Source: Synechococcus sp. RS9909
GTDB taxonomy: Bacteria > Cyanobacteriota > Cyanobacteriia > PCC-6307 > Cyanobiaceae
DNA: 24,000 nt
Assembly (NCBI RefSeq): GCF_014279595.1
Contig: NZ_CP047943.1
Location: 1,772,422 to 1,796,421 of the forward strand
Direction: 5' to 3'
Made by a program: the position numbers and the translations under genes. Numbering within the stretch: the first letter of the stretch is position 1; each line of letters starts with the position of its first letter. This document shows positions 2,661 to 19,725 of this stretch, piece by piece. The notes under the pieces are model-generated. The model saw nothing but the letters and a program-made list of their open reading frames with translations, had not been told where the DNA came from and ran no database searches.

Positions 2661-3608
2661 TCAGGGCATGGCGGGGTGTTGAACGCCACGGGTGTTGAGG
2701 TGAATGGCGTACACCGCATCCCAGCTGCAAAGGAACAAACGGTTGCCGAACTCACCACCGAAACAGAGATTGCCCACCAGTTTCGGGGTGAGAATCTTGC
2801 CGAGCAGGCTGCCATCGGCGGCGATGCAGTGCACGCCATCCCCGGCGCTGCTCCAGAGATGGCCCTGCTCATCCACCCGAATGCCGTCGGCATTGCCCGG
2901 GGCGACGCGATGAAAACTGCGACCGTTGGCCAGGGTCCGGCCGCCATCGCGCAGATCGAACACCCGGATCTGTCGATCGGGGTCGGGGTCATCGGGGGCA
3001 CCGGTGTCAGCGACATACAGCAGCGACTCATCCGGCGAGAACGCCAGACCATTGGGGCCTTGCACCTCCTCCAGCGTGGTCATCGCCTGCAGGGAGCCAT
3101 CGGCGGGATCAAAGCGATACACGGATGGAGCCTGCCAGGAGGCACGGCGCCCACCCTCGTAGTCGTTCACCAGACCGTAGAGGGGATCGCTGAACCAGAT
3201 CGTGCCATCACTCTTCACCACCACATCGTTGGGCGTGTTGAGGGGTTGGCCGGCATGGGAATCCACCAGAGTCACCACGCGCCCGTTGTGCTCCGTGCGC
3301 AACAGGGCGCGATGGCCATGGCTGCAGGTGAGCAAGCGCCCTTGCCGATCCCGGGTCTGACCGTTGGGGAAACCGGCACGGTGGCGGTACACCGTGAGGC
3401 CCAGCGCGTCATCCCAAGCGAGGATCCGATCGTTGGGGATGTCGGACACCAGCAGCCGCTGCTGATCACCGAACCACACCGGGCCCTCCAGCCAACGACA
3501 GCCATCGAACAGGCGCTCCAGCTGGGCGTTGAACAACACCAGCTGCTGAAAGCGGGGATCGACAATTTCGAACCGTGTCTCCACGAACTGACTGCAAGGC
3601 ACGCTCAT
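2661..3608 (-). CDS. SMP-30/gluconolactonase/LRE-like beta-propeller hydrolase
   Basis: 315 aa from the ATG at 3608 (MSVPCSQFVETRFEIVD...). Motifs: LEGPVWF, SDIPNDRI, FPNGQT, PNDVVVKSDGTIWFSDP, GPNGLAFSPDESLLYVADT, ADGIRVDEQGHLW. The longer start at 3662 would overlap the upstream gene. Confidence 0.8.
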   Translation of the reverse strand: MSVPCSQFVETRFEIVDPRFQQLVLFNAQLERLFDGCRWLEGPVWFGDQQRLLVSDIPNDRILAWDDALGLTVYRHRAGFPNGQTRDRQGRLLTCSHGHRALLRTEHNGRVVTLVDSHAGQPLNTPNDVVVKSDGTIWFSDPLYGLVNDYEGGRRASWQAPSVYRFDPADGSLQAMTTLEEVQGPNGLAFSPDESLLYVADTGAPDDPDPDRQIRVFDLRDGGRTLANGRSFHRVAPGNADGIRVDEQGHLWSSAGDGVHCIAADGSLLGKILTPKLVGNLCFGGEFGNRLFLCSWDAVYAIHLNTRGVQHPAMP

Positions 3609-3618
3609 GGCCACCGCC

Positions 3619-4080
3619 TCAGTGAAAGGAGCCGGGTGGGAGGTTGCGCCAGGCCTGGTCATGGCGCTGGATGATCAGCTGCACGCAGGGCTCGTCCCCC
3701 ACCTGGGCGGAGAGATGGCCCTGCTTGCCGTCGGCAGTGGCCACGCAGCCCTGATCGCCGCCATAGGAATACTCCCCAGCGTGCATCACCACCCTGGTGC
3801 CATCCATGCTCTCCACCGACCAGGCCCCTCGCAATACGTAGATCCATTTCGGGACGTGGTTTTCATGCCAGTCGGCGGTCCAGCCCACCGGCAGATAGGT
3901 GACGAAGGCATGCCCGTTGTCGAACAACTCACGGGAGAACTGGGGCGAATCCCCCGGCCCGAGTTGGCCGAGCTGAAAGTCACTGATCGTGCACTGCTCC
4001 TGGCGACTGACCCCTTGCGCATCGGTCCAGAGATGCCAGTAACGCTCGGGCTGGGGAGCCTGGCTGAAGGGATCGCTCAT
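3619..4080 (-). CDS. Cupin-like small protein (hypothetical)
   Basis: 153 aa from the internal ATG (MSDPFSQAPQPERYWHLW...). WHENHVPKWIYVLRGAWSVESMDGTRVVMHAGE resembles a cupin beta-barrel core. High GC3. Packed 10 nt upstream of the lactonase gene. Confidence 0.5.
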   Translation of the reverse strand: MSDPFSQAPQPERYWHLWTDAQGVSRQEQCTISDFQLGQLGPGDSPQFSRELFDNGHAFVTYLPVGWTADWHENHVPKWIYVLRGAWSVESMDGTRVVMHAGEYSYGGDQGCVATADGKQGHLSAQVGDEPCVQLIIQRHDQAWRNLPPGSFH

Positions 4081-8261: not shown

Positions 8262-8762
8262 ATGCTGGAGCTGCTGCCTCCCCTTAACGACAAGAATCTT
8301 CCCTGGCTCGATGTGATCCACCCGATCGTGGTTCATTTCGTGATCGCGATGGCTCTGATCACGGTCGTCTTCGACTTCCTGGGCGTGCTGACCAAACGGC
8401 GCAACCTGTTTGAAGTCAGCTTCTGGAATCTGGTGGTGGCCACGGTGGCCATCTTCGTGGCGATCATCTTCGGGCAGATCGAAGCCGGGCTCGCCAACCC
8501 CTATGGCGCATCCCGCGACATCCTCAATTACCACAGCACCCTCGGCTGGTCCTTGGCCGGCGTGCTCGGCCTGCTGACCGGCTGGCGCTATGTGGTGCGG
8601 CAGAAAGACCCCACCAGCCTGCCTTCAGGCTTCCTGGTGATTGATGCGGTTCTGGCGGTGCTGGTGTTCTGCCAGGTCTATCTGGGCGACAAGCTGGTGT
8701 GGGTCTATGGGCTGCACACCGTGCCTGTGGTGGAAGCGGTGCGTAGCGGGGCACTCTCATGA
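8262..8762 (+). CDS. DUF2231-like integral membrane protein (4 TM, conserved His)
   Basis: ATG at 8262 (the track ORF begins at TTG 8256). IHPIVVHFVIAMALITVVFDFLG TM1 motif, four predicted TM segments. The stop overlaps the next start (ATGA 8759-8762). Confidence 0.7.
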   Translation: MLELLPPLNDKNLPWLDVIHPIVVHFVIAMALITVVFDFLGVLTKRRNLFEVSFWNLVVATVAIFVAIIFGQIEAGLANPYGASRDILNYHSTLGWSLAGVLGLLTGWRYVVRQKDPTSLPSGFLVIDAVLAVLVFCQVYLGDKLVWVYGLHTVPVVEAVRSGALS

Positions 8763-9394
8763 CCACCGTTTCGATGGATCTCCTGATCGAGATTGCGTCG
8801 CCGATCAATGACATCGTCGACCAACTCGGGGCCAACGATCTCCCCTATGCCATCCCCCTGCACCCCAACCTGGTGCACTTCACGATCGGCTTGTTCGCCA
8901 TCGGCATCGCCTTCGACTTCGCTGGCGCCTTCTATCCCCTCGAGAAGCGGGTGTTTCGGTTTCTGGCGCTGCCGGTGACCCGCACCGGCTTCCACGACGT
9001 GGGCTGGTACAACGTGCTCGCCTGCGCCGTGATCACCTTCTTCACGGTGGCTGCGGGGTTCTACGAAATGCTCCTGGCGGTGCCGCTGCCGGGGATCCGC
9101 AGTGTGATCGGCCAGAACGCGATCGACACCATGCTCTGGCATGCGATCGGCGGCGTTGCCCTGCTCCTGATCATCGTCGCCATGACGATCTGGCGGGGCT
9201 ATCAACGCTTTGTGTGGCGCAAGGACCTCGGCCGTCAGGTTACCTGGCTGTATCTGGGCTGCGGAGCGCTGATCCTGGTGATCATGGGCGTTCACGGCAG
9301 CCTCGGCGCCTGGCTTGCCAGCGAATTCGGCGTGCACATCACAGCGGATCAACTCCTCGCAGCCGGAGCCGATCTCCAAGAGGTTCTGCCATGA
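8759..9394 (+). CDS. DUF2231-like integral membrane protein, paralog of the preceding gene
   Basis: LHPNLVHFTIGLFAIGIAFDFAG TM1 motif and the same TM layout as 8262..8762. ATGA overlaps at both ends (8759-8762 and 9391-9394). Confidence 0.7.
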   Translation: MTTVSMDLLIEIASPINDIVDQLGANDLPYAIPLHPNLVHFTIGLFAIGIAFDFAGAFYPLEKRVFRFLALPVTRTGFHDVGWYNVLACAVITFFTVAAGFYEMLLAVPLPGIRSVIGQNAIDTMLWHAIGGVALLLIIVAMTIWRGYQRFVWRKDLGRQVTWLYLGCGALILVIMGVHGSLGAWLASEFGVHITADQLLAAGADLQEVLP

Positions 9395-10338
9395 CATCGA
9401 CAACCCCCAAAGGCAAGAGCGGTTGGCCGATCCGCCTCATCGCCGTCATCCTCCTGGCCACGGCCAGCGATGCCCTGCTGAGCTATCAGGTCTCGCAATG
9501 GGCCTATGGATGGCTGCCGGTGCCGGCTTCCACCGCAGCTCCCTATGTCGATGATCTCTTCAGCCTTGAAGTGGGAATCGGCGCCTTCATCTTCTTCGGT
9601 TGCACCGGTTTCATTCTTTGGTCGGTGCTGTTCAATCGGGCCGAGAAATACGACGAAAGCGATGGCCTGCCGATCGAAGGCAACAACAAACTGGAGGTCA
9701 CCTGGACGGTGATTCCTTTCATCATCGTGATGATTCTGGCCTATCAGGCCATCCACGTGAGTGAAACCCTCTCAGCCCTCGGCCCCAAGGTGAAATACGA
9801 CGTGGAAGGGGGCCTGAGCCCAGACACGGCCATTGTGACGGGAGTGCGGGATGACATTGGCCCCATCGATGTGATCGCAAGGCAGTGGAGCTGGGAGTTC
9901 ATCTATCCCAACGGCGTGCACAGCTCAGAACTCCATCTCCCCCTCGATCAGCGGGCCAATTTCCGCATGAGCAGCGAGGATGTGATCCATGGTTTCTTTG
10001 TGCCCGCCTTCCGCCTGAAGCAGGACATCGTTCCCGGCAGCGTGATTTCCTACAGCATCACACCCACCCGAGAAGGGCGTTATCGCCTTCGGGATTCCCA
10101 GTTCAGCGGTGCTTATTTCTCCCAGAATCAAACCGATGTGGTGGTGGAGAGCGAAGATATGTTCAACGCCTGGTTGAAACAAAGTGCTGCCAATCCCCTG
10201 GTTCCCGGATTGAGCCCGGGAACGGCCCTCTACAACGAGCGCCTCGCCAAGGGCAATAAGGGCTGGGCCACGGTGCCACCGGCACCGCCTCCGATGGTGA
10301 ATGATCCCGGCAATCCCGACGCTCCTCACGACGCCTGA
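9391..10338 (+). CDS. ctaC: Heme-copper oxidase subunit II lacking the CuA site (ARTO/CtaCII type)
   Basis: 315 aa from the ATG at 9391. Two N-terminal TM segments plus a cupredoxin domain (DVIHGFFVPAFRLKQDIVPG). Where CuA oxidases read CAELCGxxHxxM, this protein reads RDSQFSGAYFSQN. Confidence 0.85.
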   Translation: MTSTTPKGKSGWPIRLIAVILLATASDALLSYQVSQWAYGWLPVPASTAAPYVDDLFSLEVGIGAFIFFGCTGFILWSVLFNRAEKYDESDGLPIEGNNKLEVTWTVIPFIIVMILAYQAIHVSETLSALGPKVKYDVEGGLSPDTAIVTGVRDDIGPIDVIARQWSWEFIYPNGVHSSELHLPLDQRANFRMSSEDVIHGFFVPAFRLKQDIVPGSVISYSITPTREGRYRLRDSQFSGAYFSQNQTDVVVESEDMFNAWLKQSAANPLVPGLSPGTALYNERLAKGNKGWATVPPAPPPMVNDPGNPDAPHDA

Positions 10339-10343
10339 CCCCG

Positions 10344-12032
10344 ATGACGACCACCAAGTACGACCCGAGAGTTCTCAAGGCGCCCCATCCGGTGCCCGGT
10401 GCGCCCGACAACTGGAAGCGGTTCTTCACCTTCAACACCGACGCCAAGGTGATCGGCATCCAGTACATGGGCCTGTCCCTGTTCTTCCTGCTGGTGGGAG
10501 GACTGCTGGCCATGGTGATGCGCGGTGAACTGATCACACCGCCATCGGATCTGGTGGATCCCACCGTTTACAACGGTCTTTACACCATGCATGGAACAGT
10601 GATGCTGTTCCTGTTTCTGTTCCCGATTCTCAACGGCTTCAACAACCTGCTGATCCCCACCATGATCGGCGCCCCCGACATGGCCTTCCCGAAAGTGAAC
10701 GCCGCCGCCTTCTGGCTGGTTCCGGTGTTCTCGGTGGTGCTGCTCTCCAGCTTTTTCGTGCCAGGAGGTCCGGCCTCAGCCGGTTGGTGGTCCTATCCAC
10801 CGGTGAGCATCCAGAACCCGCTCGGCCACTTCCTCAACGGTGAATTTCTTTGGATTCTCGCCGTGGCCCTCTCGGGGATCTCTTCGATCTTGGGCGCGCT
10901 GAATTTCGTGACCACAATCATTCGCATGCGGGCCCCTGGCATGGGCTTTTTCCGGATGCCCGTGTTCGTCTGGACCGCCTGGGCAGCCCAGACCCTGCAG
11001 TTGGTGGGCCTGCCCGCCCTGACCGGTGGGGCGATCATGCTGCTCTTTGACCTGAGCTTCGGCACCAGCTTTTTCCGGCCCGAAGGTGGCGGCGATCCGG
11101 TGCTCTATCAACACTTTTTCTGGTTCTATTCGCACCCGGCGGTGTATGTGATGGTGCTGCCGGTGTTCGGCATCTTCTCCGAGCTGATCACCGTGTATTC
11201 GCGCAAGCCTCTGTTTGGCTACAAGTTTGTGGCGATCGCCTCCTTCATCATCACCTTCCTGGGCTTGATCGTGTGGGTGCACCACATGTTCTATTCAGGT
11301 ACGCCCCAGTGGATGCGCAACATCTTCATCGTCACCACGATGCTGATCGCCGTGCCCACCGGCGTGAAGGTGTTCGCCTGGCTCGGCACGCTTTGGGGAG
11401 GAAAGATCCGACTCACCACGCCGATGCTGTTCGTGCTTGGTGGTGTGGTGAATTTCATTCTGGGTGGTGTTACTGGAATCATGCTCGGCACCGCACCGAT
11501 CGACATCCATGTGGGCAACACCTATTTTGTGGTGGCTCACTTCCACTACATCATCTTCAACACGATCGGCTTCGGAATCTTTGCCGGCATCTACCACTGG
11601 TTCCCCAAGTTCACCGGCCGCATGTATTACGAAGGCCTCGGCAAAATTCATTTTGTGCTCACCTTCATCGGTGCCACCCTCAACTGGCTGCCGATGCACT
11701 GGGCTGGCCTTTACGGCATGCCCCGTCGCGTTGCCTCCTACGACCCTGAATTCGCCATCTGGAACGTGATTGCCAGCATCGGCGCCTTCATGCTCGGCGT
11801 CGCTTCGATCCCCTTCATCCTCAACATCGTCAGCTCCTGGGCCCGCGGCGCCAAGGCCTCCGCCAACCCCTGGAACGCGATCGGCCTCGAATGGCTGCTT
11901 CCCTCACCGCCACCGGCTGAGAACTTCGAGGATGACGTTCCCACCGTGATCAGCGAGCCCTATGGCTATGGCCTGGGCAAGCCCCTCGTAAAGGACGAGG
12001 AGTATTACATCCGCCGTTCCATGGAGGCGTGA
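10344..12032 (+). CDS. ctaD: Heme-copper oxidase subunit I (A2 type)
   Basis: YTMHGTVMLF (heme a His), WFYSHPAVYVMVLP (CuB His, cross-link Tyr, YS motif), VWVHHMF (CuB His pair), VVAHFHYIIF (heme a3/a His). Confidence 0.95.
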   Translation: MTTTKYDPRVLKAPHPVPGAPDNWKRFFTFNTDAKVIGIQYMGLSLFFLLVGGLLAMVMRGELITPPSDLVDPTVYNGLYTMHGTVMLFLFLFPILNGFNNLLIPTMIGAPDMAFPKVNAAAFWLVPVFSVVLLSSFFVPGGPASAGWWSYPPVSIQNPLGHFLNGEFLWILAVALSGISSILGALNFVTTIIRMRAPGMGFFRMPVFVWTAWAAQTLQLVGLPALTGGAIMLLFDLSFGTSFFRPEGGGDPVLYQHFFWFYSHPAVYVMVLPVFGIFSELITVYSRKPLFGYKFVAIASFIITFLGLIVWVHHMFYSGTPQWMRNIFIVTTMLIAVPTGVKVFAWLGTLWGGKIRLTTPMLFVLGGVVNFILGGVTGIMLGTAPIDIHVGNTYFVVAHFHYIIFNTIGFGIFAGIYHWFPKFTGRMYYEGLGKIHFVLTFIGATLNWLPMHWAGLYGMPRRVASYDPEFAIWNVIASIGAFMLGVASIPFILNIVSSWARGAKASANPWNAIGLEWLLPSPPPAENFEDDVPTVISEPYGYGLGKPLVKDEEYYIRRSMEA

Positions 12033-12643
12033 AACCAATGACTTCAGCGAGCCAAGACCTCAACCTCAATCACGAGCCAGGCCACATCAAGCACGATGGC
12101 CACAACCTCACTGGCTTCATCATCTTTCTCTGCTCAGAGAGCATCATCTTTCTGGCTTTCTTCAGCGGCTTTGCCCTGCTAAAGCTCACCAGCCCCGAAT
12201 GGCTTCCGGAAGGGGTGGAAGGCTTGGAGACCAAGCTGCCCCTGATCAACACGATTGTGCTGGTGAGCTCCAGCTTTGTGGCCTACTTCGCAGAGCGTTA
12301 TCTCCACAAGGAAAACCTCTGGGGATTTCGGGCTCTCTGGCTGCTCACCATGGCGATGGGCACCTATTTCGTGTATGGGCAATACGTGGAATGGTCGGAG
12401 CTTCCCTTCAGTCTCTCCAATGGTGTGTTCGGGGGCACGTTCTATCTGCTCACCGGATTTCATGGCCTGCATGTGATCACGGGCATCCTCTTGATGGCCC
12501 TGATGCTGTTCCGTTCCTTCCGTCCCAACAATTACGCCAAGGGCGACATGGGGGTCACCTCCGTGAGCCTGTTCTGGCACTTTGTGGATGTGATCTGGAT
12601 CATTCTCTACATCCTGATCTACGTGTGGCAGCGCCACACCTGA
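12029..12643 (+). CDS. ctaE: Heme-copper oxidase subunit III
   Basis: FYLLTGFHGLHVITG and SLFWHFVDVIWIILY signatures. The GTG at 12029 overlaps the ctaD stop (GTGA); the ATG at 12038 is an alternative start. Confidence 0.9.
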   Translation: MKPMTSASQDLNLNHEPGHIKHDGHNLTGFIIFLCSESIIFLAFFSGFALLKLTSPEWLPEGVEGLETKLPLINTIVLVSSSFVAYFAERYLHKENLWGFRALWLLTMAMGTYFVYGQYVEWSELPFSLSNGVFGGTFYLLTGFHGLHVITGILLMALMLFRSFRPNNYAKGDMGVTSVSLFWHFVDVIWIILYILIYVWQRHT

Positions 12644-12667
12644 GTCGTTCCCTACCTGAATCGAGCC

Positions 12668-14188
12668 ATGATCATCGATGATTGCCACTACGACGTCATC
12701 ATCATCGGCAGCGGTGCCGGTGGTGGAACCCTGGCCGGTGCCCTGAGCCGCAAGGGGCACAAGGTGCTGCTGTTGGAGCGGGGCGGCGCCATGGCTCTGG
12801 AGGATCAGAACGTGGCCGATGTGGATCTGTTCAGGAAAGATCGCTACCACCCCAAAAATGAGCGCTGGTTCGGTCCTGACGGTGATCCCTTCGCTCCCCA
12901 GACCACCTATGCCCTGGGGGGCAACACCAAAATCTGGGGAGCTGCCCTGGAACGGATGCGCGAGAAAGATTTCGGCGAAATCCCACTCCAGGACGGCGTG
13001 TCACCAAGCTGGCCTTTCGATTACGCCAGCCTGGCGCCTTACTACGACGCCGCCGAAGCGCTCTATCAGGTGCATGGCCAAGCGGGTGTGGACCCCACGG
13101 AGCCGTCACGGTCGACACCTTTTCCCCACGCCCCGAAGCCGCTGCTTCCTTTCCTGGAACCATTGCGCGATGGCCTGCAGCGTCAGGGGTGTCAGCCCTA
13201 TGACCTCCCCCTGAGCTGGTCGACCGATCCCGAGGATCCTTCCGGCGACGCCCAGATTTTCGGCCTGAACCAGGCCGACCCCAACACGCTGGAGACGCGA
13301 GCCCTGGCGCGGGTGACCCGCCTGCACACCAGCCCCGATGGACGGGAGGTGAAAGGGGTGGAGGCCGAAGTGGCCGGGGACCTGTGGTTGTTCAGCGCTG
13401 ATCTGGTGGTGCTGGCCGCCGGCGCGATCAACAGCGCAGCCATCCTGCTGCGCTCCAGCTCCGATCGGCATCCACGCGGCCTGAGCAACGGCTCCGACCA
13501 GGTGGGCCGCAACCTGATGAATCTGCAGCTCACCTCAATCCTGCAGCTGGCGGCAGAGCCGAATAGCGGACGTTACGCCCGCTCTCTCGGCATCAACGAC
13601 TACTACTGGGGAGACAAGAACGTCAGCTTTCCGCTCGGTCATCTCCAGAGTGCCGGCGGCGTCTTGCAGGACGCCCTGTTTGCGGAGTCGCCGCCAGTGC
13701 TCTCCCTGGTGAGCAAGCTGATCCCCGATTTCGGTCTCGAACGACTCGCCTCCCGTTCGGTGGCCTGGTGGGCGATGACCGAAGTGCGACCCGATCCCCA
13801 CAACAAAGTGTGGCTTCACAACGACCAGATCAGGATCAACTACCTCCACAACAATCGAGAGGCTCACGATCGCCTGGTGTATCGCTGGATCGACACCCTC
13901 AAAGCGGTGGAGGCTGATCCGGTGACCCGGGTCGTGACCTCAGCGCCCACCCACCCGCGCGGCGAAGCTCCCCTGAGCGTGGTGGGTTATGCCTGCGGAA
14001 CCTGCCGGATGGGACAGGATGCGGCCGCCTCAGTGGTGGATGCCACCGGCAAGTGCCATGAACTCAACAACCTCTACCTGGCCGACGCCAGCGTGTTCCC
14101 CAGCTGCCCGAGCGTTGGCCCTGGTCTCACCGTGATTGCCCTGGCCCTCAGGCTCGCCGATCAGCTCGATCAGCGCCTTCAGGGCTGA
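12668..14188 (+). CDS. GMC-family FAD-dependent oxidoreductase
   Basis: N-terminal YDVIIIGSGAGGGTLAGALSRKGHKVLLLERGG (Rossmann FAD fold). C-terminal GTCRMG...NLYLADASVFPSCPSVGPGLTVIALALRLA (GMC C-terminal domain). Starts 24 nt after ctaE. Confidence 0.85.
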   Translation: MIIDDCHYDVIIIGSGAGGGTLAGALSRKGHKVLLLERGGAMALEDQNVADVDLFRKDRYHPKNERWFGPDGDPFAPQTTYALGGNTKIWGAALERMREKDFGEIPLQDGVSPSWPFDYASLAPYYDAAEALYQVHGQAGVDPTEPSRSTPFPHAPKPLLPFLEPLRDGLQRQGCQPYDLPLSWSTDPEDPSGDAQIFGLNQADPNTLETRALARVTRLHTSPDGREVKGVEAEVAGDLWLFSADLVVLAAGAINSAAILLRSSSDRHPRGLSNGSDQVGRNLMNLQLTSILQLAAEPNSGRYARSLGINDYYWGDKNVSFPLGHLQSAGGVLQDALFAESPPVLSLVSKLIPDFGLERLASRSVAWWAMTEVRPDPHNKVWLHNDQIRINYLHNNREAHDRLVYRWIDTLKAVEADPVTRVVTSAPTHPRGEAPLSVVGYACGTCRMGQDAAASVVDATGKCHELNNLYLADASVFPSCPSVGPGLTVIALALRLADQLDQRLQG

Positions 14189-14776: not shown

Positions 14777-15409
14777 CTATTCGAAGGGTCGACGTCCGAT
14801 CCAGACCCCCTGATCGTCAGCCCGCACCAGAAACTGATCGGCGTCGGATGTGAGGCTCAAACGGTTCAACTGCTTCACGTTGACGCCAGGAAAGGCCGTG
14901 AGGGGCAAGCGCCGGAGCTGAATCCCCTCAGGCAGTGGGCCGAAACGCTCCGGCCAGCTCCCCGCCACCGTTCCCTCCTCCCAACGGGCCCGGATCATCT
15001 CCACCGACAGCCCTGAAGCCACAGCGACAGGCTTGCCCCTGTCGACAGCTTTGTCCTTCGCAACAGCCTTATCCTCCAAAGCACTCGGAGGACAGGCCGG
15101 GGGCTTTTCGGCACCGGGCTTGGCAGCCGCATCCTTGGCCTCGACCAGCTCCGGTGGCGGCGGCAACTTGGCACTGAGGGTGAGCAGGGAGGAGGGCACC
15201 AGCGGCTCCTGTCCGCCCAGGCGCCGGCTCAGCCTCACGAGCTGGCGCGTGTTGTCCACCACCGTGGCCGCAGCGGCGGGAGGCGCGGCTCGGCTGCGCC
15301 AGCTGGAGGCACCGATCACCACCGCATGGATCACGATGGCCACGGCAACAGGAAGGGCCAGGGGCCACGCCTCAGGGGCGCGCCGGAGGAGGGAGTTCAA
15401 GGTCCACAT
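14777..15409 (-). CDS. TonB/TolA-like energy-transducer candidate: TonB-type TM anchor, Pro/Ala-rich spacer, non-TonB C-terminal domain
   Basis: 210 aa from the internal ATG at 15409: MWTLNSLLRRAPEAWPLALPVAVAIVIHAVVIGASSW resembles E. coli TonB LPRRFPWPTLLSVCIHGAVVAGLL (RR-x-P, WP, TM His). Spacer KLPPPPELVEAKDAAAKPGAEKPPACPP. The C-terminal ~90 aa lack the TonB_C pattern. Overlaps the upstream ExbD-like gene by 38 nt. Confidence 0.5.
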   Translation of the reverse strand: MWTLNSLLRRAPEAWPLALPVAVAIVIHAVVIGASSWRSRAAPPAAAATVVDNTRQLVRLSRRLGGQEPLVPSSLLTLSAKLPPPPELVEAKDAAAKPGAEKPPACPPSALEDKAVAKDKAVDRGKPVAVASGLSVEMIRARWEEGTVAGSWPERFGPLPEGIQLRRLPLTAFPGVNVKQLNRLSLTSDADQFLVRADDQGVWIGRRPFE

Positions 15410-16629: not shown

Positions 16630-17463
16630 TCAGGTCGACGTTAGGGACCCCTGGACGACACCCATGTGCTGCACCTGCTTGACAGGAGCACGTTGACGCC
16701 GCAATCCCTCCCATCCTGTGAGCAAGGCCGCAGACACCAGCAGGACAGAGAAGCCGATGCGGAGCTGGCGATCCTTGAAATGGGGCGCAAGGGCCTGGCC
16801 GACCAGTCCACCCACCCCACCGCCGATCAACAGGGGAAGTACCAGGGGCAACCGTTCGGCAGGCCAGTGCCCCAGGGCACCGAGGGCCACCAGGCTGTTC
16901 AGGGCAATCAGCACCAGGCTGGTGCCGCTCGCCAACTGCATCGGCAGGCCGGCCAGAAGCACGAGGGCTGGCACGAGCGCAAAGCCGCCACCGACGCCGG
17001 CAATGCCCGTCAGCAAGCCCACCAACACCCCCTGCAGCATCAGGGCCGGTGCTCGCACCGTGGCAGCGGCAACAGCGGGCTCGTCATGCGCGCGATCCGT
17101 TCGCTTCTGACGGCTGAGCATCAACCAGGCCGCCAGCAGGGCCGCGATGGCAAACACAGCCAGCTGCACCGGCTCGGCGATCCAGCCAGCCTTCACCATC
17201 GTGCCTCCGATCCAGGCCCCCATCAGGGCCGGAACCCCCAGCAGCAGGGCCGGACGGGGCGCGACGAGGCGACGGCGCAGATAGGGAATCATGTTGGCGA
17301 TCGCCAGCAGGGTCACCACCACCAGCGAAAGGGGCACCGCATCGCGGGTGGAGAGGCCAGCTCCCGTCACGAGGATGGGAAGCAGCAGGATCGATCCACC
17401 GGCACCGAGCACCGCCAACAGGAAACCGATCACACCACCACCGAGAAGCAGCAACGCAATCAC
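16630..17463 (-). CDS. TauE/SafE (DUF81) family sulfite/organosulfonate exporter-like membrane protein
   Basis: Duplicated 4-TM halves with LGAGGSILLLPIL and GIAGVGGGFALVPALVL motifs. The GTG start overlaps the upstream stop (GTGA 17460-17463). Confidence 0.8.
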   Translation of the reverse strand: MIALLLLGGGVIGFLLAVLGAGGSILLLPILVTGAGLSTRDAVPLSLVVVTLLAIANMIPYLRRRLVAPRPALLLGVPALMGAWIGGTMVKAGWIAEPVQLAVFAIAALLAAWLMLSRQKRTDRAHDEPAVAAATVRAPALMLQGVLVGLLTGIAGVGGGFALVPALVLLAGLPMQLASGTSLVLIALNSLVALGALGHWPAERLPLVLPLLIGGGVGGLVGQALAPHFKDRQLRIGFSVLLVSAALLTGWEGLRRQRAPVKQVQHMGVVQGSLTST

Positions 17464-17987
17464 GGGCGCACCTGATTCCAGGGCATGGCAGCCAGCAGGC
17501 GAGCCATCCCGCAGAAACCACTGATGCCGGCGAACATCAAGCCGGCACCGACAAAGCCACTGAGCCAGATCCAGCCCGGGGCCACCAGCACCGACAGAAG
17601 CACGCCAGCGAGCACCAGGCCGCCGGCCACGATCTGCACCTGACGCATCAGGGGCAACGGGGCCCCCTTGCGCTTCTCCACAGGAAGACCGGCCTGCTGC
17701 CAGGCCAACATGCCGCCCTCCAGATCCGCGAGGCCTTCGCCGAAGCCCTTGGCGCGCAGAGCCGCCATCCCCCGCTCACTGCGGGCACCGCTCTGGCACA
17801 CCAGCACCAGAGGCGCGGAAGGGAGTGGCGCTTCGGTGAGCTGACCGAGGGGCACATTGCGACTGCCGGCGATATGGCCGCCGACGTATTCCATCGGTTC
17901 ACGCACGTCGATCACGCTGACGCGACCCTGGCGTAAACGGTCCTGCAATTCGTGGGGACTGAGACGCAATGGAGTGATGCTGGTCAT
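17460..17987 (-). CDS. Rhodanese domain fused to a DUF2892 membrane domain (YgaP-like)
   Basis: 175 aa from the ATG at 17987: MTSITPLRLSPHELQDRL..., active-site loop VCQSGARS (CxxxxR). C-terminal VAGGLVLAGVLLS...GAGLMFAGISGFCGMARLL matches the DUF2892 pattern. The longer track ORF (to 18320) reads through a C/T-rich spacer and the upstream gene. Confidence 0.8.
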   Translation of the reverse strand: MTSITPLRLSPHELQDRLRQGRVSVIDVREPMEYVGGHIAGSRNVPLGQLTEAPLPSAPLVLVCQSGARSERGMAALRAKGFGEGLADLEGGMLAWQQAGLPVEKRKGAPLPLMRQVQIVAGGLVLAGVLLSVLVAPGWIWLSGFVGAGLMFAGISGFCGMARLLAAMPWNQVRP

Positions 17988-17993
17988 GGCGAA

Positions 17994-18028
17994 GGGATGG
18001 GGTGAATGGGAATGGGAAGGGGAAGGGG
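17994..18028 (+). other. G-tract array (six G3-4 runs, loops 2-5 nt); canonical G-quadruplex motif on the + strand, C/T-rich on the mRNA-sense (-) strand
   Basis: GGGatGGGGtgaatGGGaatGGGaaGGGGaaGGGG read directly. It lies in the 85-nt spacer between the PDO-rhodanese and ygaP-like genes. Confidence 0.7.
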
Positions 18029-18072
18029 AAGGAAGGCGGTGAATCAACCCTGGGAAACAGGTCCGGTGCCGC

Positions 18073-19185
18073 TCAGACGCTGAGGGGTTCGGGCATGGGC
18101 AGCCCTTTGCGATACCAGTCCTGAAGTCCGCCGCGCAGGTTGGCGACCTTCTTGAAACCGGCCTTGACCAACTGCTGGGTCGCGAGGGCGGAACGGCTAC
18201 CGGCATGGCAGAACACCACGGTGGCAACCTCCGGATCGAGTCGATCGAGATGCTCCGCCAGTTCGGGCAGAGGGATGTTGCGGCTGCCGGGCAGCGCGCC
18301 ATCGGGCCCCCGGGCTTCATCGGCGTTGCGAACGTCGAGAATCGTGAGCTCGGCGAGATGGTCGGCGACCCACTCGGGCTCCAGCTCCGGCAGGCCGGAG
18401 TAGCTGCGCTTCAACGGTGCCCACGCGGGTTGGTCCGGCCCATCGATCCGGGGGCGCCCACTGCGCAGATTCGCCGGCAGGGCCTGGGCGATGCGATGCG
18501 GGTGGGGAAGTTTGAGCGATTCCATATGAATCACGAAATCCCGCTCATCGGCCCCACCACCCAGACGGGCGTTGAGGGCACGCTCCTCGGCAACGCTGGT
18601 CACCTGACGACCGCTGTAGTCGTGGCCGGGATAGAGAAGGCACTGGTCGGGCAGGGAGAGGATCTGCTCGGTGATCGAGCGATAGAGGGTGTGAGCGTTG
18701 CCCTGCTGGAAATCGGAGCGGCCGCAACCCCTGATCAACAAGGCATCGCCGGTGAAGGCCGCACTGGCGTCATCCAACACGAAGGTGAGACAGCCATCGG
18801 TGTGCCCTGGAGTGGCACGCACCTCCAGGGCACGGGCTCCGAAACCGACCCGATCGCCGTGTTGCAGGGGCTGGGTGACATTCTCGGCGCGAGCGGCGGC
18901 GGCGAGGCCGATGGCGGCACCGGTGGCCTCATGCATCAGCCAGCTGCCGGTGACATGGTCGGCATGGGCGTGGGTGTCGAGGCAGGCCACCAGATCGACC
19001 CCTAACTCACGCACCAGGGCGAGATCCCGCTCATGACGCTCGAAGACCGGATCGATCAGCACACCCTTGGCCGAGGGCACATCCACCAGGAGGTAGCTGA
19101 AGGTACCGGTCTCAGCATCGAACAACTGGCGCAGAAGCAGGGAATGGCCTCCTGCGGCGGCCTGGAGAAGCGAAGAGCTAGCCAT
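18073..19185 (-). CDS. Persulfide dioxygenase (ETHE1/Blh-type MBL fold) fused to a C-terminal rhodanese domain
   Basis: THAHADHVTG (HxHxDH), TPGHTDGC, GDALLIRGCGRSDFQQGNAHTLYRSI, LYPGHDY. C-terminal rhodanese with FCHAGSRS (CxxxxR). Confidence 0.85.
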   Translation of the reverse strand: MASSSLLQAAAGGHSLLLRQLFDAETGTFSYLLVDVPSAKGVLIDPVFERHERDLALVRELGVDLVACLDTHAHADHVTGSWLMHEATGAAIGLAAAARAENVTQPLQHGDRVGFGARALEVRATPGHTDGCLTFVLDDASAAFTGDALLIRGCGRSDFQQGNAHTLYRSITEQILSLPDQCLLYPGHDYSGRQVTSVAEERALNARLGGGADERDFVIHMESLKLPHPHRIAQALPANLRSGRPRIDGPDQPAWAPLKRSYSGLPELEPEWVADHLAELTILDVRNADEARGPDGALPGSRNIPLPELAEHLDRLDPEVATVVFCHAGSRSALATQQLVKAGFKKVANLRGGLQDWYRKGLPMPEPLSV

Positions 19186-19203
19186 GGGTCCTCAGATCAC
19201 TTT

Positions 19204-19219
19204 ATGAGTGTACACGCAT
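19204..19219. promoter_or_regulatory. 16-bp near-perfect palindrome ATGAGTGTACACGCAT (7 of 8 pairs; core GTGTACAC); candidate ArsR-family operator
   Basis: Read directly. It lies 19-34 bp upstream of the PDO-rhodanese ATG, in the divergent region shared with the ArsR-like gene. Confidence 0.3.
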
Positions 19220-19362
19220 ATCAACATCGCTCATGGTTTTCGGCCCAGGACCTGCACCACGGCGCTGTCTCCCTGGTGGTAGCGCCCTTCCGCGATCGGG
19301 CGGGCATCCATGGCCGCATCGCATCACGACGGCATAATGCCTGTATCGGCATAGGGGAGGCC

Positions 19363-19725
19363 ATGGCGAGACAACCAGAACACGCCGAAGGGTGTTCCAT
19401 GCATCAGCTCTCCCCCGAAATGATCGAGGAGCTGAGCGGCTTTTTCCGACTGCTGGGCGAACCGGCACGCCTGCGCCTGATGTGCGAAATCCGCAACGGC
19501 AGCAGCGATGTGGCCACTCTGATGGACCGCACCGGCTTCAGTCAGTCCCATCTCAGCCGCCAGCTCGGCCAACTGCAGAAAGCCGGGCTGGTGCAGGTGG
19601 AACGGGATGGGAACCGCTCTCGGTATACGGCCACCGATCCGGTGGTGGAGGCCATCTGCCAGCTGGCGCAGGAGCGGCTGATGAACCACCTGCGGCAACG
19701 GCTCGACAGCCTCAATGTCGCCTGA
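19363..19725 (+). CDS. ArsR/SmtB-family winged-helix regulator, BigR/SqrR-like (two-Cys persulfide-sensor layout)
   Basis: FFRLLGEPARLRLMCEIRNGSSDVATLMDRTGFSQSHLSRQLGQLQKAGLVQVERDGNRSRYTA (HTH). Cys in alpha2 (LMCEI) and alpha5 (AICQL). Alternative start ATG 19399. Divergent from the PDO operon. Confidence 0.75.
   Translation: MARQPEHAEGCSMHQLSPEMIEELSGFFRLLGEPARLRLMCEIRNGSSDVATLMDRTGFSQSHLSRQLGQLQKAGLVQVERDGNRSRYTATDPVVEAICQLAQERLMNHLRQRLDSLNVA

Follow-up and report, generated by a model that had tools for sequence, protein, structure and literature searches.

A picocyanobacterial ExbB/ExbD-like gene module with a candidate TonB/TolA-like transducer bearing an unfamiliar C-terminal domain

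The locus and its genes

The DNA considered here, referred to as the window, is a stretch of 24,000 nucleotides from Synechococcus sp. RS9909. It harbors a module of four genes in the order ExbB-like, D1, D2 and T, with T as the last gene (Table 1). The ExbB-like gene starts 18 nt past the TauE stop, and the module genes overlap at each junction: by 1 nt (the D1 ATG shares its A with the ExbB-like TGA), by 4 nt, and by 38 nt, where the start of T lies inside the 3′ end of D2. The module is translationally coupled. Site prediction yields no promoter-like site, and two terminator-like sites, neither of them between or after the module genes. The four proteins are currently unannotated or listed under a generic family name.

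Table 1. Genes of the module, segments of T and the neighboring gene, with positions in the window.
Feature	Position	Strand	Remarks
ExbB/TolQ-like subunit, 173 aa	16090..16611	-	First module gene; three membrane helices
D1, first ExbD-like protein, 120 aa	15728..16090	-	N-terminal membrane helix plus periplasmic domain
D2, second ExbD-like protein, 119 aa	15372..15731	-	ATGA overlap with the D1 stop
T, force-transducer candidate	14777..15409	-	TonB/TolA-like, single-pass; 210 aa plus stop
T membrane helix, residues 16-38	15296..15364	-	AF2 helix at residues 12-39; column counts
T juxtamembrane motif VVDNTRQLVRLSRR, residues 50-63	15221..15262	-	Column counts
T LPPPPEL segment, residues 82-88	15146..15166	-	Column counts
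T Ala/Lys/Pro/Asp low-complexity spacer, residues 89-130	15020..15145	-	pLDDT; dN/dS
T C-terminal globular domain, residues 131-210 (80 residues)	14780..15019	-	AF2 model
Candidate accessory gene, 155 aa	14238..14705	-	71 nt downstream of T

All 13 related loci in which the module is complete have the same gene order (L001, L002, L003, L012, L015, L017, L018, L020 and L023-L027), and partial loci agree. The D1 gene is present in every complete locus, and the genetic link of T to the ExbB-like and the two ExbD-like genes in all loci. Across these loci the flanking genes are unrelated and the identity of T falls to 27%. T adjoins or overlaps D2 everywhere except on two low-GC Tara contigs, its start overlapping D2 in the window and in L001, L017/L018, L019, L022, L023, L025 and L027. 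The module is confined to picocyanobacteria; in the window and in L026 it occupies a conserved chromosomal position near dnaA.

The T frame runs on the minus strand from an ATG at 15409 to a stop at 14777-14779. This is the ORF named in a preliminary description of the DNA, and both peptide strings quoted there are found in its translation. The ORF listing also contains a longer ORF of 267 aa, open from 15580; the MWTLN start at 15409 is the one conserved across homologues. The window has 57-69% GC and many spurious overlapping ORFs, a Pro-rich tail on any single-pass protein would give a resemblance to TonB, and the similarity of the T anchor to TonB is not significant, all of which might favor an open frame that arose by chance in DNA of high GC, or a gene that has nothing to do with its neighbors and is TonB-like by accident. 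However, the conservation data already refute such an accident. The preliminary description named a lack of orthologues as evidence against the ORF, but homologues fall into 19 clusters of 46-100% identity (search of 5.8 billion proteins) and 39 representatives (full-length profile against 1.84 billion representatives, with no match outside the T family). Orthologues extend down to 27% identity and occur also in DNA of 48% GC, and T stands constantly downstream of D2 in the same order. The overall dN/dS is 0.12-0.34, with the smallest values (0.08-0.27) in the N-terminal part and in the C-terminal domain, and the largest in the spacer. T is a genuine gene under purifying selection, and the chance frame is scarcely credible.

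Downstream of T lies a gene for a protein with a HELFH (HExxH) motif, a hydrophobic N-terminus that resembles a signal peptide by eye and a weak match to Pfam Zn_peptidase_2 (E 0.012). Only members of the window's own clade (L001, L004, L006-L010, L012-L015) have it next to T; in L003 it lies 2.5 kb from T, and L002, L017 and L022-L027 have no such gene beside T. It is possibly an accessory gene. Across the family, no partner candidate is encoded with the module. There is no tolB, pal or cpoB-like gene beside the module in the window or in any related locus, and no TonB-dependent transporter gene within the 24-kb window. A reading as a defense system (Zorya-like MotAB) was discarded, as PADLOC gives no match for any of five proteins.

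The ring subunit and the ExbD-like pair

The first module protein matches Pfam MotA_ExbB (PF01618) at E 2e-10, with 40.9 bits against a cut-off of 22.9, and gives weak matches to NCBIfam exbB and exbB2. It has 151 homologues, and the nearest ones (154-176 aa) are named from picocyanobacteria only. TM2 contains GLL[AGST][ST]V in 35 of 35 relatives, with Ser in the window. In TM3 all 35 have a Thr or Ser ahead of a conserved GL (as G[TS], S[TA] or AT), the window carrying Thr and one member Ser-Ala. Aligned by eye to T148 and T181 of the E. coli protein, these positions suggest that the polar Thr-type ring of 5:2 motors in TM2 and TM3 is kept. An acidic residue occupies the cytoplasmic start of TM2 in 27 of the 35 members (E83 in the window), and Gln is found at the position of E. 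coli ExbB E176 (again aligned by eye). Among the ExbB residues that contact TonB, Ser34 has a counterpart, while Trp38 and Pro190 have none.

The D2 profile matches the ExbD periplasmic domains 8pek and 7ajq in the PDB (E 0.005-0.008), its sole matches there, and six of 11 D2 members match Pfam ExbD (best E 8.3e-5). The direct ExbD signal of D1 is weak (PDB E 0.61; one member with a Pfam match at E 0.078). D1 and D2 align to each other over the periplasmic domain (hhalign E 5.8e-5), by which D1 is a paralogue of D2.

To our knowledge, a membrane Asp is needed in every characterized ExbD, TolR and MotB. Neither Asp nor Glu is present in or at the membrane helices of window D1 (MPFVLATAVVVVSLTGFLALVPALL) and D2 (PWALAFAASSVCVALLATAAVVM), and D2 carries Pro8/Trp9 at the cytoplasmic helix edge, a place taken by Asp or Glu in relatives. 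An acidic residue at this edge is found in the D2 orthologues of 8 of 16 loci and in the D1 orthologues of 0 of 13. The conserved protonatable Asp of the 5:2-motor inner dimer has no counterpart in the two window proteins, a point that the preliminary description does not make. In T, Asn takes the place of the membrane His in three of the 15 loci where T and D2 are both readable. There is no clean pattern of compensation among the D2 Asp, the acidic TM2 residue of the ExbB-like protein and the His or Asn of T; at the extremes, one locus has all three residues (L001) and another has none (L023).

Because window D1 and D2 lack the canonical membrane Asp, a proton-driven mechanism is something that we only infer. 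Were the proton-binding Asp of the ExbD-like pair lost, the complex would be static: the same assembly, not an ion-driven motor here but a scaffold or tether of the envelope, in which T would be a passive strut that links the inner membrane with the wall or outer membrane. The helices of window D1 and D2 and of half of the D2 orthologues, all free of acidic residues, the Asn of T in three of 15 loci and the Gln at the E176 position are consistent with such a strut. However, the Ser/Thr positions that ring the Asp of real motors persist in 35 of 35 ExbB-like relatives, the four genes are all under purifying selection and stay together, and the acidic residue at the start of ExbB-like TM2 (27/35) could take over. 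GldL of the gliding motor likewise bears a protonatable Glu on the ring subunit. A static tether is unlikely on this evidence, though not negligible.

Anchor, juxtamembrane motif and spacer of T

T is composed of a short cytoplasmic tail, one membrane helix, a juxtamembrane motif, LPPPP, a low-complexity spacer and a C-terminal domain, which is the domain layout of TonB and TolA. A role as anti-sigma factor or signaling protein was dropped because the cytoplasmic tail has merely about 15 residues. The conserved stripe on the helix, P20-A24-H28-I32, forms an i/i+4 face; P20 is present in 25 of 31 members and A24 in 30 of 31, and position 32 is Ile in 16 and Leu in 16. His28 (codon at 15326-15328) is His in 24 of 32 family members, Asn in seven and Gln in one. 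The corresponding H20N variant of E. coli TonB is functional.

Hhalign pairs the T helix LPVAVAIVIHAVVIGA with WPTLLSVCIHGAVVAG of E. coli TonB at E 0.14 (probability 0.4%), and neither hhalign nor the PDB sequence search detects significant similarity of T to TonB or TolA. From the TonB motif S-x3-H-x6-L-x3-S, T keeps the His alone: the first Ser is replaced by Ala24, and the Leu and the last Ser are unmatched. Of the TonB-like anchor in the preliminary description, which included the membrane His, the His is largely kept and the Ser is gone. The likeness is one of pattern and not significant homology on its own. It rises above chance through the gene context, which is ExbB/ExbD-like.

The juxtamembrane motif is the most conserved stretch in the family, with the near-invariant form DNTxQLVRLSRR (D52 28/32, T54 30/32, L57 32/32, R59 30/32, R62 28/32). 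It lies about 13 residues past the helix, at the place of the TonB D-box, with a sequence unrelated to it; the position of the D-box, 45-ISVTMVT-51, which binds ExbD, is taken from published work (PMC10907165, PMC12215075). AF2 draws the T motif as a low-confidence helix and not as a strand.

The columns of the invariant LPPPP segment are L82 (29/32), P83 (29), P84 (31), P85 (32), P86 (29) and L88 (26). The spacer that follows contains degenerate DKAVAK-type repeats. Residues 81-131 have pLDDT below 50 in the AF2 model and are predicted to be disordered, and the dN/dS of the spacer (0.13-0.60) is the highest in the protein. Its length varies among close strains, with an 18-bp repeat present 6.8 times in L010, and the protein ranges from 210 to 254 aa. 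A Pro/Ala/Lys-rich spacer after the anchor had already been proposed, and this part of the description is borne out.

The C-terminal domain of T

AF2 (30-sequence alignment) predicts for the C-terminal head a helix, a strand, a short helix and then a three-stranded meander, with pLDDT 88.9 and pTM 0.77. The dN/dS of this region is 0.08-0.24; W143 is invariant and R166 nearly so. The model thus suggests with confidence a compact fold, which is under purifying selection. The TonB C-terminal domain has the element order helix-strand-strand-helix-strand. The head of T (helix-strand-helix-strand-strand-strand) differs from it.

Searches with T and its head return no known domain. Window T has no Pfam or NCBIfam match, and no TonB, TolA or related Pfam family is matched by any of 32 T members, which give only six unrelated one-member Pfam matches (best E 0.0016). 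The PDB sequence search yields nothing except a chance match to bL20m (E 0.5), and hhalign gives no alignment of the C-terminal profile with E. coli TonB. Foldseek of the head model against the PDB reaches at best E 0.16, with TM 0.37 or less, and no TonB, TolA, ExbD or vWA structure is among the 50 listed matches; the best partial matches are roadblock/LAMTOR-type hairpins (29-43 columns, E above 0.15), which are regarded as chance. Foldseek of the full-length model returns noise alone because 60 residues are disordered. In the BFVD viral structure library nothing matches the head (best E 0.18), and the head profile retrieves from 5.8 billion proteins only fragments of 54-133 aa, none with a Pfam domain. 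The idea of a third ExbD-like domain was also rejected (hhalign E 0.24). The head is a domain unlike those known in Pfam, NCBIfam, PDB sequences and PDB folds.

The claim that the head is not TonB_C is therefore sustained at the levels of sequence, profile and predicted fold, where no clear match to TonB_C or TolA-III appears; this includes the Foldseek comparison that had been proposed for it. Both halves of the original reading survive: T directly follows an ExbB-like and two ExbD-like genes, its layout is that of TonB/TolA, and its head has no TonB_C or TolA-III signal. A partner other than a TonB box may reasonably be expected.

The TolA system offers another way to view such a protein. 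T could be the functional equivalent of TolA rather than of TonB, in a cyanobacterial substitute for Tol-Pal by which the outer membrane stays attached while the cell divides; its head would bind a wall-linked or outer-membrane tether. The window has no TonB-dependent transporter, such transporters are lacking from genomes such as Prochlorococcus (PMC2771747), and in picocyanobacteria the canonical tonB-exbBD genes belong to a separate siderophore cluster in few genomes (PMC10119275). The Ala/Lys-rich repeat spacer also recalls TolA domain II, and the position near dnaA shared by the window and L026 would fit as well. On the other hand, tolB, pal and cpoB-like genes are missing beside the module in every locus, the head has no similarity to TolA-III, and the family is rare (39 representative clusters), although a function essential to division would be expected throughout the clade. 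Equivalence to TolA is accordingly improbable.

A model for the complex

The reading that we favor, and consider fairly likely, assigns T to a picocyanobacterial complex with kinship to ExbB-ExbD-TonB and TolQ-TolR-TolA, in which it would be the coupling subunit that spans the periplasm. The parts of this reading that we infer are the assembly of the complex, the functions of the motifs, the transmission of force and a partner for T. The ExbB-like protein would form a membrane ring and, by analogy with 5:2 motors, D1 and D2 would form a heterodimer inside it. The T helix may dock on the ring exterior via its conserved P20-A24-H28-I32 face, and just outside the membrane the periplasmic domains of D1 and D2 may grip DNTxQLVRLSRR in the way that ExbD holds the TonB D-box. 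The reach across the periplasm would come from the LPPPP segment together with the variable spacer, and the 80-residue head would bind a partner in the wall or outer membrane other than a TonB box or TolB/Pal.

A bolder proposal, which we regard as doubtful, is a cyanobacteria-specific Ton/Tol-type machine that works without the Asp of ExbD, TolR and MotB, its ion path running via E83 of the ExbB-like protein or its gating being quite different. The new head would energize an envelope process in organisms that mostly have no TonB-dependent transporters. If so, this process could be porin-mediated uptake of scarce nutrients or outer-membrane tethering.

The Ton and Tol systems, the flagellar stator and gliding motors have a common 5:2 ion-driven core; the part that reaches outward differs and defines the biology. 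Before 2025, the only heads known to us on externally docked transducers were TonB_C and TolA-III; a vWA head was proposed then. The T family adds a third head, new at the level of the fold, in picocyanobacteria, which dominate ocean photosynthesis. Most picocyanobacterial genomes have no TonB-dependent transporter. The partner of the T head, once found, would reveal an energized envelope process in these organisms. Furthermore, part of the family has naturally lost the ExbD-type Asp, which provides a ready test of the indispensability of this residue.

Comparison with known systems

T shares with the Ton system of E. coli a lone membrane helix at the N-terminus, whose conserved face bears a conserved His, a short conserved motif about 13 residues past the helix, a Pro-containing disordered periplasmic spacer followed by a small C-terminal globular head, and ExbB-like and ExbD-like gene neighbors. 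In contrast to TonB, T lacks TonB_C, has Ala for the Ser of S-x3-H and carries a juxtamembrane motif that bears no relation to the D-box. Instead of one ExbD gene the module has two that are ExbD-like and differ from each other, and their products do not have Asp25. The ExbB-like protein is shorter (173 aa vs 244), with almost no cytoplasmic domain, and no TonB-dependent transporter is encoded near the module.

TolA, with TolQ-TolR, presents the same three-part layout, membrane His and Ala/Lys-rich repetitive spacer, and a role that need not be nutrient import. However, T does not have the domain III fold, its spacer falls far short of the length of helical TolA domain II in gamma-proteobacteria, and tolB, pal and cpoB are absent from the locus.

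GldL-GldM and PorL-PorM form a 5:2-type ring with a periplasm-spanning partner whose tip is not TonB-like. The protonatable residue of GldLM is on the ring subunit and not on the inner dimer, and a motor that lacks the ExbD Asp might be modeled on it. Unlike in the T module, the inner dimer of GldLM serves as the periplasmic arm, GldLM is not known to have a third subunit docked from outside, and no sequence relationship between the two is known.

TonB-like transducers with a vWA head, encoded beside a tolQ-like gene and two tolR-like genes, were described in 2025 (Williams-Jones et al., 2025, Mol Biol Evol, PMC12204202). The head of T is an 80-residue alpha/beta domain as opposed to a vWA fold of roughly 200 residues (PMC12204202), and neither window T nor the 32 members have a vWA Pfam match. 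Their hosts are Proteobacteria, the PVC group, Bacteroidetes and Rhodothermaeota rather than picocyanobacteria, and the T module differs in having no TPR gene and a tolR-like pair without the Asp (PMC12204202). Nevertheless, the gene order and layout of the T module are as described there, and these vWA-headed force transducers are the closest precedent for T (PMC12204202).

Organization and conservation of the module

T, the TonB/TolA-like protein, is encoded by the last of four consecutive minus-strand reading frames in which the stop of each overlaps the start of the next, following an ExbB-like gene and the genes of two ExbD-like proteins, D1 and D2. The mechanical ORF list gives T as 267 aa, from 15580; unlike this longer ORF, all homologues start at the MWTLN/MLNF methionine. 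The N-terminal and C-terminal peptides of the preliminary description are both found in the window, and the observation of this ORF is confirmed.

Coordinates of the module, the regions of T and the neighboring genes in the window
Feature	Position	Strand	Remark
ExbB-like protein, 173 aa	16611..16090	-	reading frame
D1, 120 aa	16090..15728	-	ATG takes its A from the ExbB-like TGA
D2, 119 aa	15731..15372	-	ATGA overlap with D1 stop
T, 210 aa	15409..14777	-	starts 38 nt within D2
T, tail	residues 1-15		short basic cytoplasmic tail
T, helix	residues 16-38		single membrane helix; conserved stripe every four residues
T, motif	residues 50-63		VVDNTRQLVRLSRR; highest conservation in the entire protein
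T, proline motif	residues 82-86		LPPPP; essentially invariant
T, spacer	15020-15145 (residues 89-130)	-	disordered, Ala/Lys/Pro/Asp
T, head	residues 131-210		compact domain
HExxH protein, 155 aa	14238-14705	-	HELFH; two Cys
DUF2231, COX2, COX1, COX3, GMC-family oxidoreductase	8759-14188	+	membrane-protein gene, then cytochrome oxidase cluster, then oxidoreductase
Sulfur-handling cluster	16630-19725		directly upstream of the module
TauE	16630-17463	-	stop 18 nt ahead of ExbB-like start
Rhodanese with YgaP-like membrane domain	17460-18320	-	mechanical ORF, 286 aa
MBL-fold hydrolase fused to rhodanese	18073-19185	-	sulfur-handling cluster
ArsR-type regulator	19033-19725	+	divergent; sulfur-handling cluster

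The ExbB-like protein matches Pfam MotA_ExbB above the curated cut-off (E 2e-10) and the NCBIfam exbB models weakly. Its closest relatives measure 154-176 aa, the source being, for the few where one is named, Synechococcus or an unclassified cyanobacterial MAG, and ordinary ExbB proteins (215-230 aa) are reached at ~30% identity only. As single sequences, neither D1 nor D2 matches Pfam. A D2 profile of 11 orthologues finds the ExbD periplasmic domain as its sole matches in the PDB (8pek, 7ajq, E 0.005-0.008), and six of the 11 individually match Pfam ExbD (best E 8e-5). D1 aligns with D2 across the domain matched to ExbD (hhalign, E 5.8e-5) and by itself matches ExbD weakly. By these matches, T therefore shares its module with one ExbB/TolQ-like and two distinct ExbD/TolR-like genes.

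Related loci were gathered by metagenome and genome scans, plus exact-sequence look-ups. Thirteen span the whole module (L001, L002, L003, L012, L015, L017, L018, L020, L023-L027), and all 13 hold the identical four genes in identical order, even with T at 27-35% identity to the window; the incomplete contigs are all compatible with this order.

Genomic context

The flanks of the module vary between loci. Some, including the window, carry the sulfur-handling cluster and cytochrome oxidase genes; others carry CorA, CHAD and DUF7219, a two-component system, an RND pump, or PALP with a Na/Ca exchanger and SulP. The Tara Oceans contig L026 (48% GC) shares the window's synteny (dnaA, ParB-like nuclease, pyridine-nucleotide disulphide oxidoreductase, module, GMC oxidoreductase), and the dnaA-proximal synteny is also kept in L021, likewise a low-GC marine Tara Oceans contig (48% GC). 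Both lack the sulfur cluster and the HExxH gene downstream of T, and their D2 and T genes are separated by 280-475 nt rather than overlapping.

The window's sulfur cluster resembles BigR/Blh-type sulfide detoxification operons, and sulfur-related genes (PALP, SulP, rhodanese-YgaP, ArsR) also lie beside the module in L024, L025 and L027. The mechanical rhodanese-YgaP ORF has ~250 nt in common with the end of the MBL-rhodanese gene; the true start of the rhodanese-YgaP gene is probably near 17990, because the L001 orthologue (3424-3951) has 175 aa. The DUF2231-COX-GMC arrangement is conserved in the syntenic L001, with two DUF2231 genes there. The HExxH protein has a hydrophobic N-terminus, signal-peptide-like by eye, and matches Pfam Zn_peptidase_2 weakly (E 0.012). 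Its gene follows T within the window's own clade and not at more distant loci, and may therefore be a lineage-specific accessory or partner.

Conservation and anatomy of T

Among 5.8 billion protein clusters, 19 relatives of T were recovered (46-100% identity), the named ones being 'hypothetical protein' entries of Synechococcus BS55D, BS56D and one Synechococcaceae MAG. HMMER, run exhaustively over 1.84 billion representatives, recovers 39 proteins at E <= 0.001. The layout is identical in every full-length family member retrieved (31/39). Against six orthologues, dN/dS is 0.12-0.34 (Nei-Gojobori), tightest over the first third of the protein and in the C-terminal domain (0.08-0.27) and loosest in the spacer (0.13-0.60). 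T is thus a genuine gene, and since its orthologues occur in DNA of 48% up to 71% GC, its frame is not a by-product of composition. The family is small and clade-restricted; its members are unannotated and the ExbB-like subunit carries a generic family name only.

The anatomy of T was derived from column counts over 32 diverse members and an AlphaFold model. The helix stripe consists of P20 (25/31), A24 (30/31), position 28 (His in 24, Asn in 7, Gln in 1) and I32 (Ile/Leu in 32/32). E. coli TonB H20N is reportedly functional, with which the His/Asn alternation at position 28 is consistent. Within residues 50-63, L57 is invariant (32/32), followed by T54 and R59 (30/32 each) and D52 and R62 (28/32 each). 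The spacer of close relatives contains an 18-bp tandem repeat encoding DKAVAR/DKAVAK, whose copies vary among nearly identical strains from ~2 degenerate (window) to 6.8 (L010, 493-614), L008 and L009 being further loci with the repeat, and the length of T consequently ranges over 210-254 aa at 74-97% identity.

The head

The head is modeled confidently from an alignment of 30 C-terminal domains (pLDDT 88.9, pTM 0.77), in the order helix 6-13, strand 34-38, short helix 48-51 and strands 54-57, 61-67 and 72-78. Foldseek against 350,542 PDB chains returned none at E <= 0.001 (best E 0.16, every TM-score <= 0.37); the best partial matches are LAMTOR/roadblock hairpins, and no TonB, TolA or ExbD chain is among the 50 matches listed. 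A viral structure library gave nothing either, nor did hhalign of the head with E. coli TonB or with the D2 domain. Pfam over 32 family members yields zero TonB, TolA or related families, and the head profile finds short fragments alone (54-133 aa), none with a Pfam domain. The earlier proposal that this domain is not TonB_C is thus borne out by sequence, profile and predicted fold alike, with very remote kinship still conceivable.

Membrane Asp and energy coupling

To our knowledge, an Asp close to where the membrane helix ends on the cytoplasmic side is essential in all characterised ExbD, TolR and MotB proteins. At this site D1 is acidic in 0/13 loci and D2 in 8/16, with Asp in L001, L017, L019, L020 and L022 and Glu in L024, L025 and L027; the remaining D2 loci have Pro, His, Arg or nothing (Pro8/Trp9 in the window). 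The Ser/Thr of ExbB-like TM2/TM3, which surround the Asp in real motors, are kept in 35/35 members, the ExbB E176 position is Gln, and 27/35 are acidic where TM2 begins on the cytoplasmic side (E83 in the window, 'CLELAM'). No clean pattern of compensation links the D1/D2 Asp site with the ExbB-like ring sites. Judged from these residues, canonical ion conduction by the window's complex is uncertain. Because D1 and D2 of the window lack the Asp, the reading of T as a force transducer becomes less certain, while that of a TonB/TolA-like subunit of an ExbBD-like complex is unaffected. Overall, the analysis supports T as a TonB-like anchor with a new, non-TonB_C head, and as a probable externally docked periplasmic transducer whose mechanism, with the Asp absent, is uncertain.

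Comparison with known systems

In E. coli cryo-EM structures, Ser16/His20 of TonB (Ser18/His22 of TolA) touch a Ser and a Trp of ExbB/TolQ TM1 from the ring exterior (PMC12215075), and the TonB D-box (45-ISVTMVT-51), directly past the helix, is gripped by the ExbD periplasmic dimer (PMC10907165; PMC12215075). In T, a His lies on the conserved face of the helix and the strongest motif follows ~13 residues past it, the spacing of the D-box. The ExbB-like protein has an invariant TM1 Ser (12/12), roughly at the depth of ExbB Ser34, but is without a Trp38 or Pro190 counterpart. Searched against the PDB, the T family profile matches neither TonB nor TolA; hhalign pairs the His helix of T with that of E. 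coli TonB, but only at E 0.14. Of the suggested mirroring of the TonB anchor, the His on the conserved face is kept, and the similarity is non-significant. At the level of sequence, the parallels with TonB/TolA are those of position and pattern, without detectable homology.

Picocyanobacterial iron-uptake papers describe the canonical fecDCAB-tonB-exbBD cluster only, in few genomes (PMC10119275), and TonB-dependent transporters are missing from genomes such as Prochlorococcus (PMC2771747). A literature search found no paper describing the ExbB-like-D1-D2-T module. The closest published parallel is the vWA-headed transducers, TonB/TolA-like proteins that combine a His-bearing membrane helix, a vWA head and a disordered linker containing a motor box; Cyanobacteria are named there solely as known TonB carriers (Williams-Jones et al., 2025, PMC12204202). 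The T family resembles them in genetic and domain logic but differs in its other, far smaller head, its host clade and its degenerate ExbD pair.
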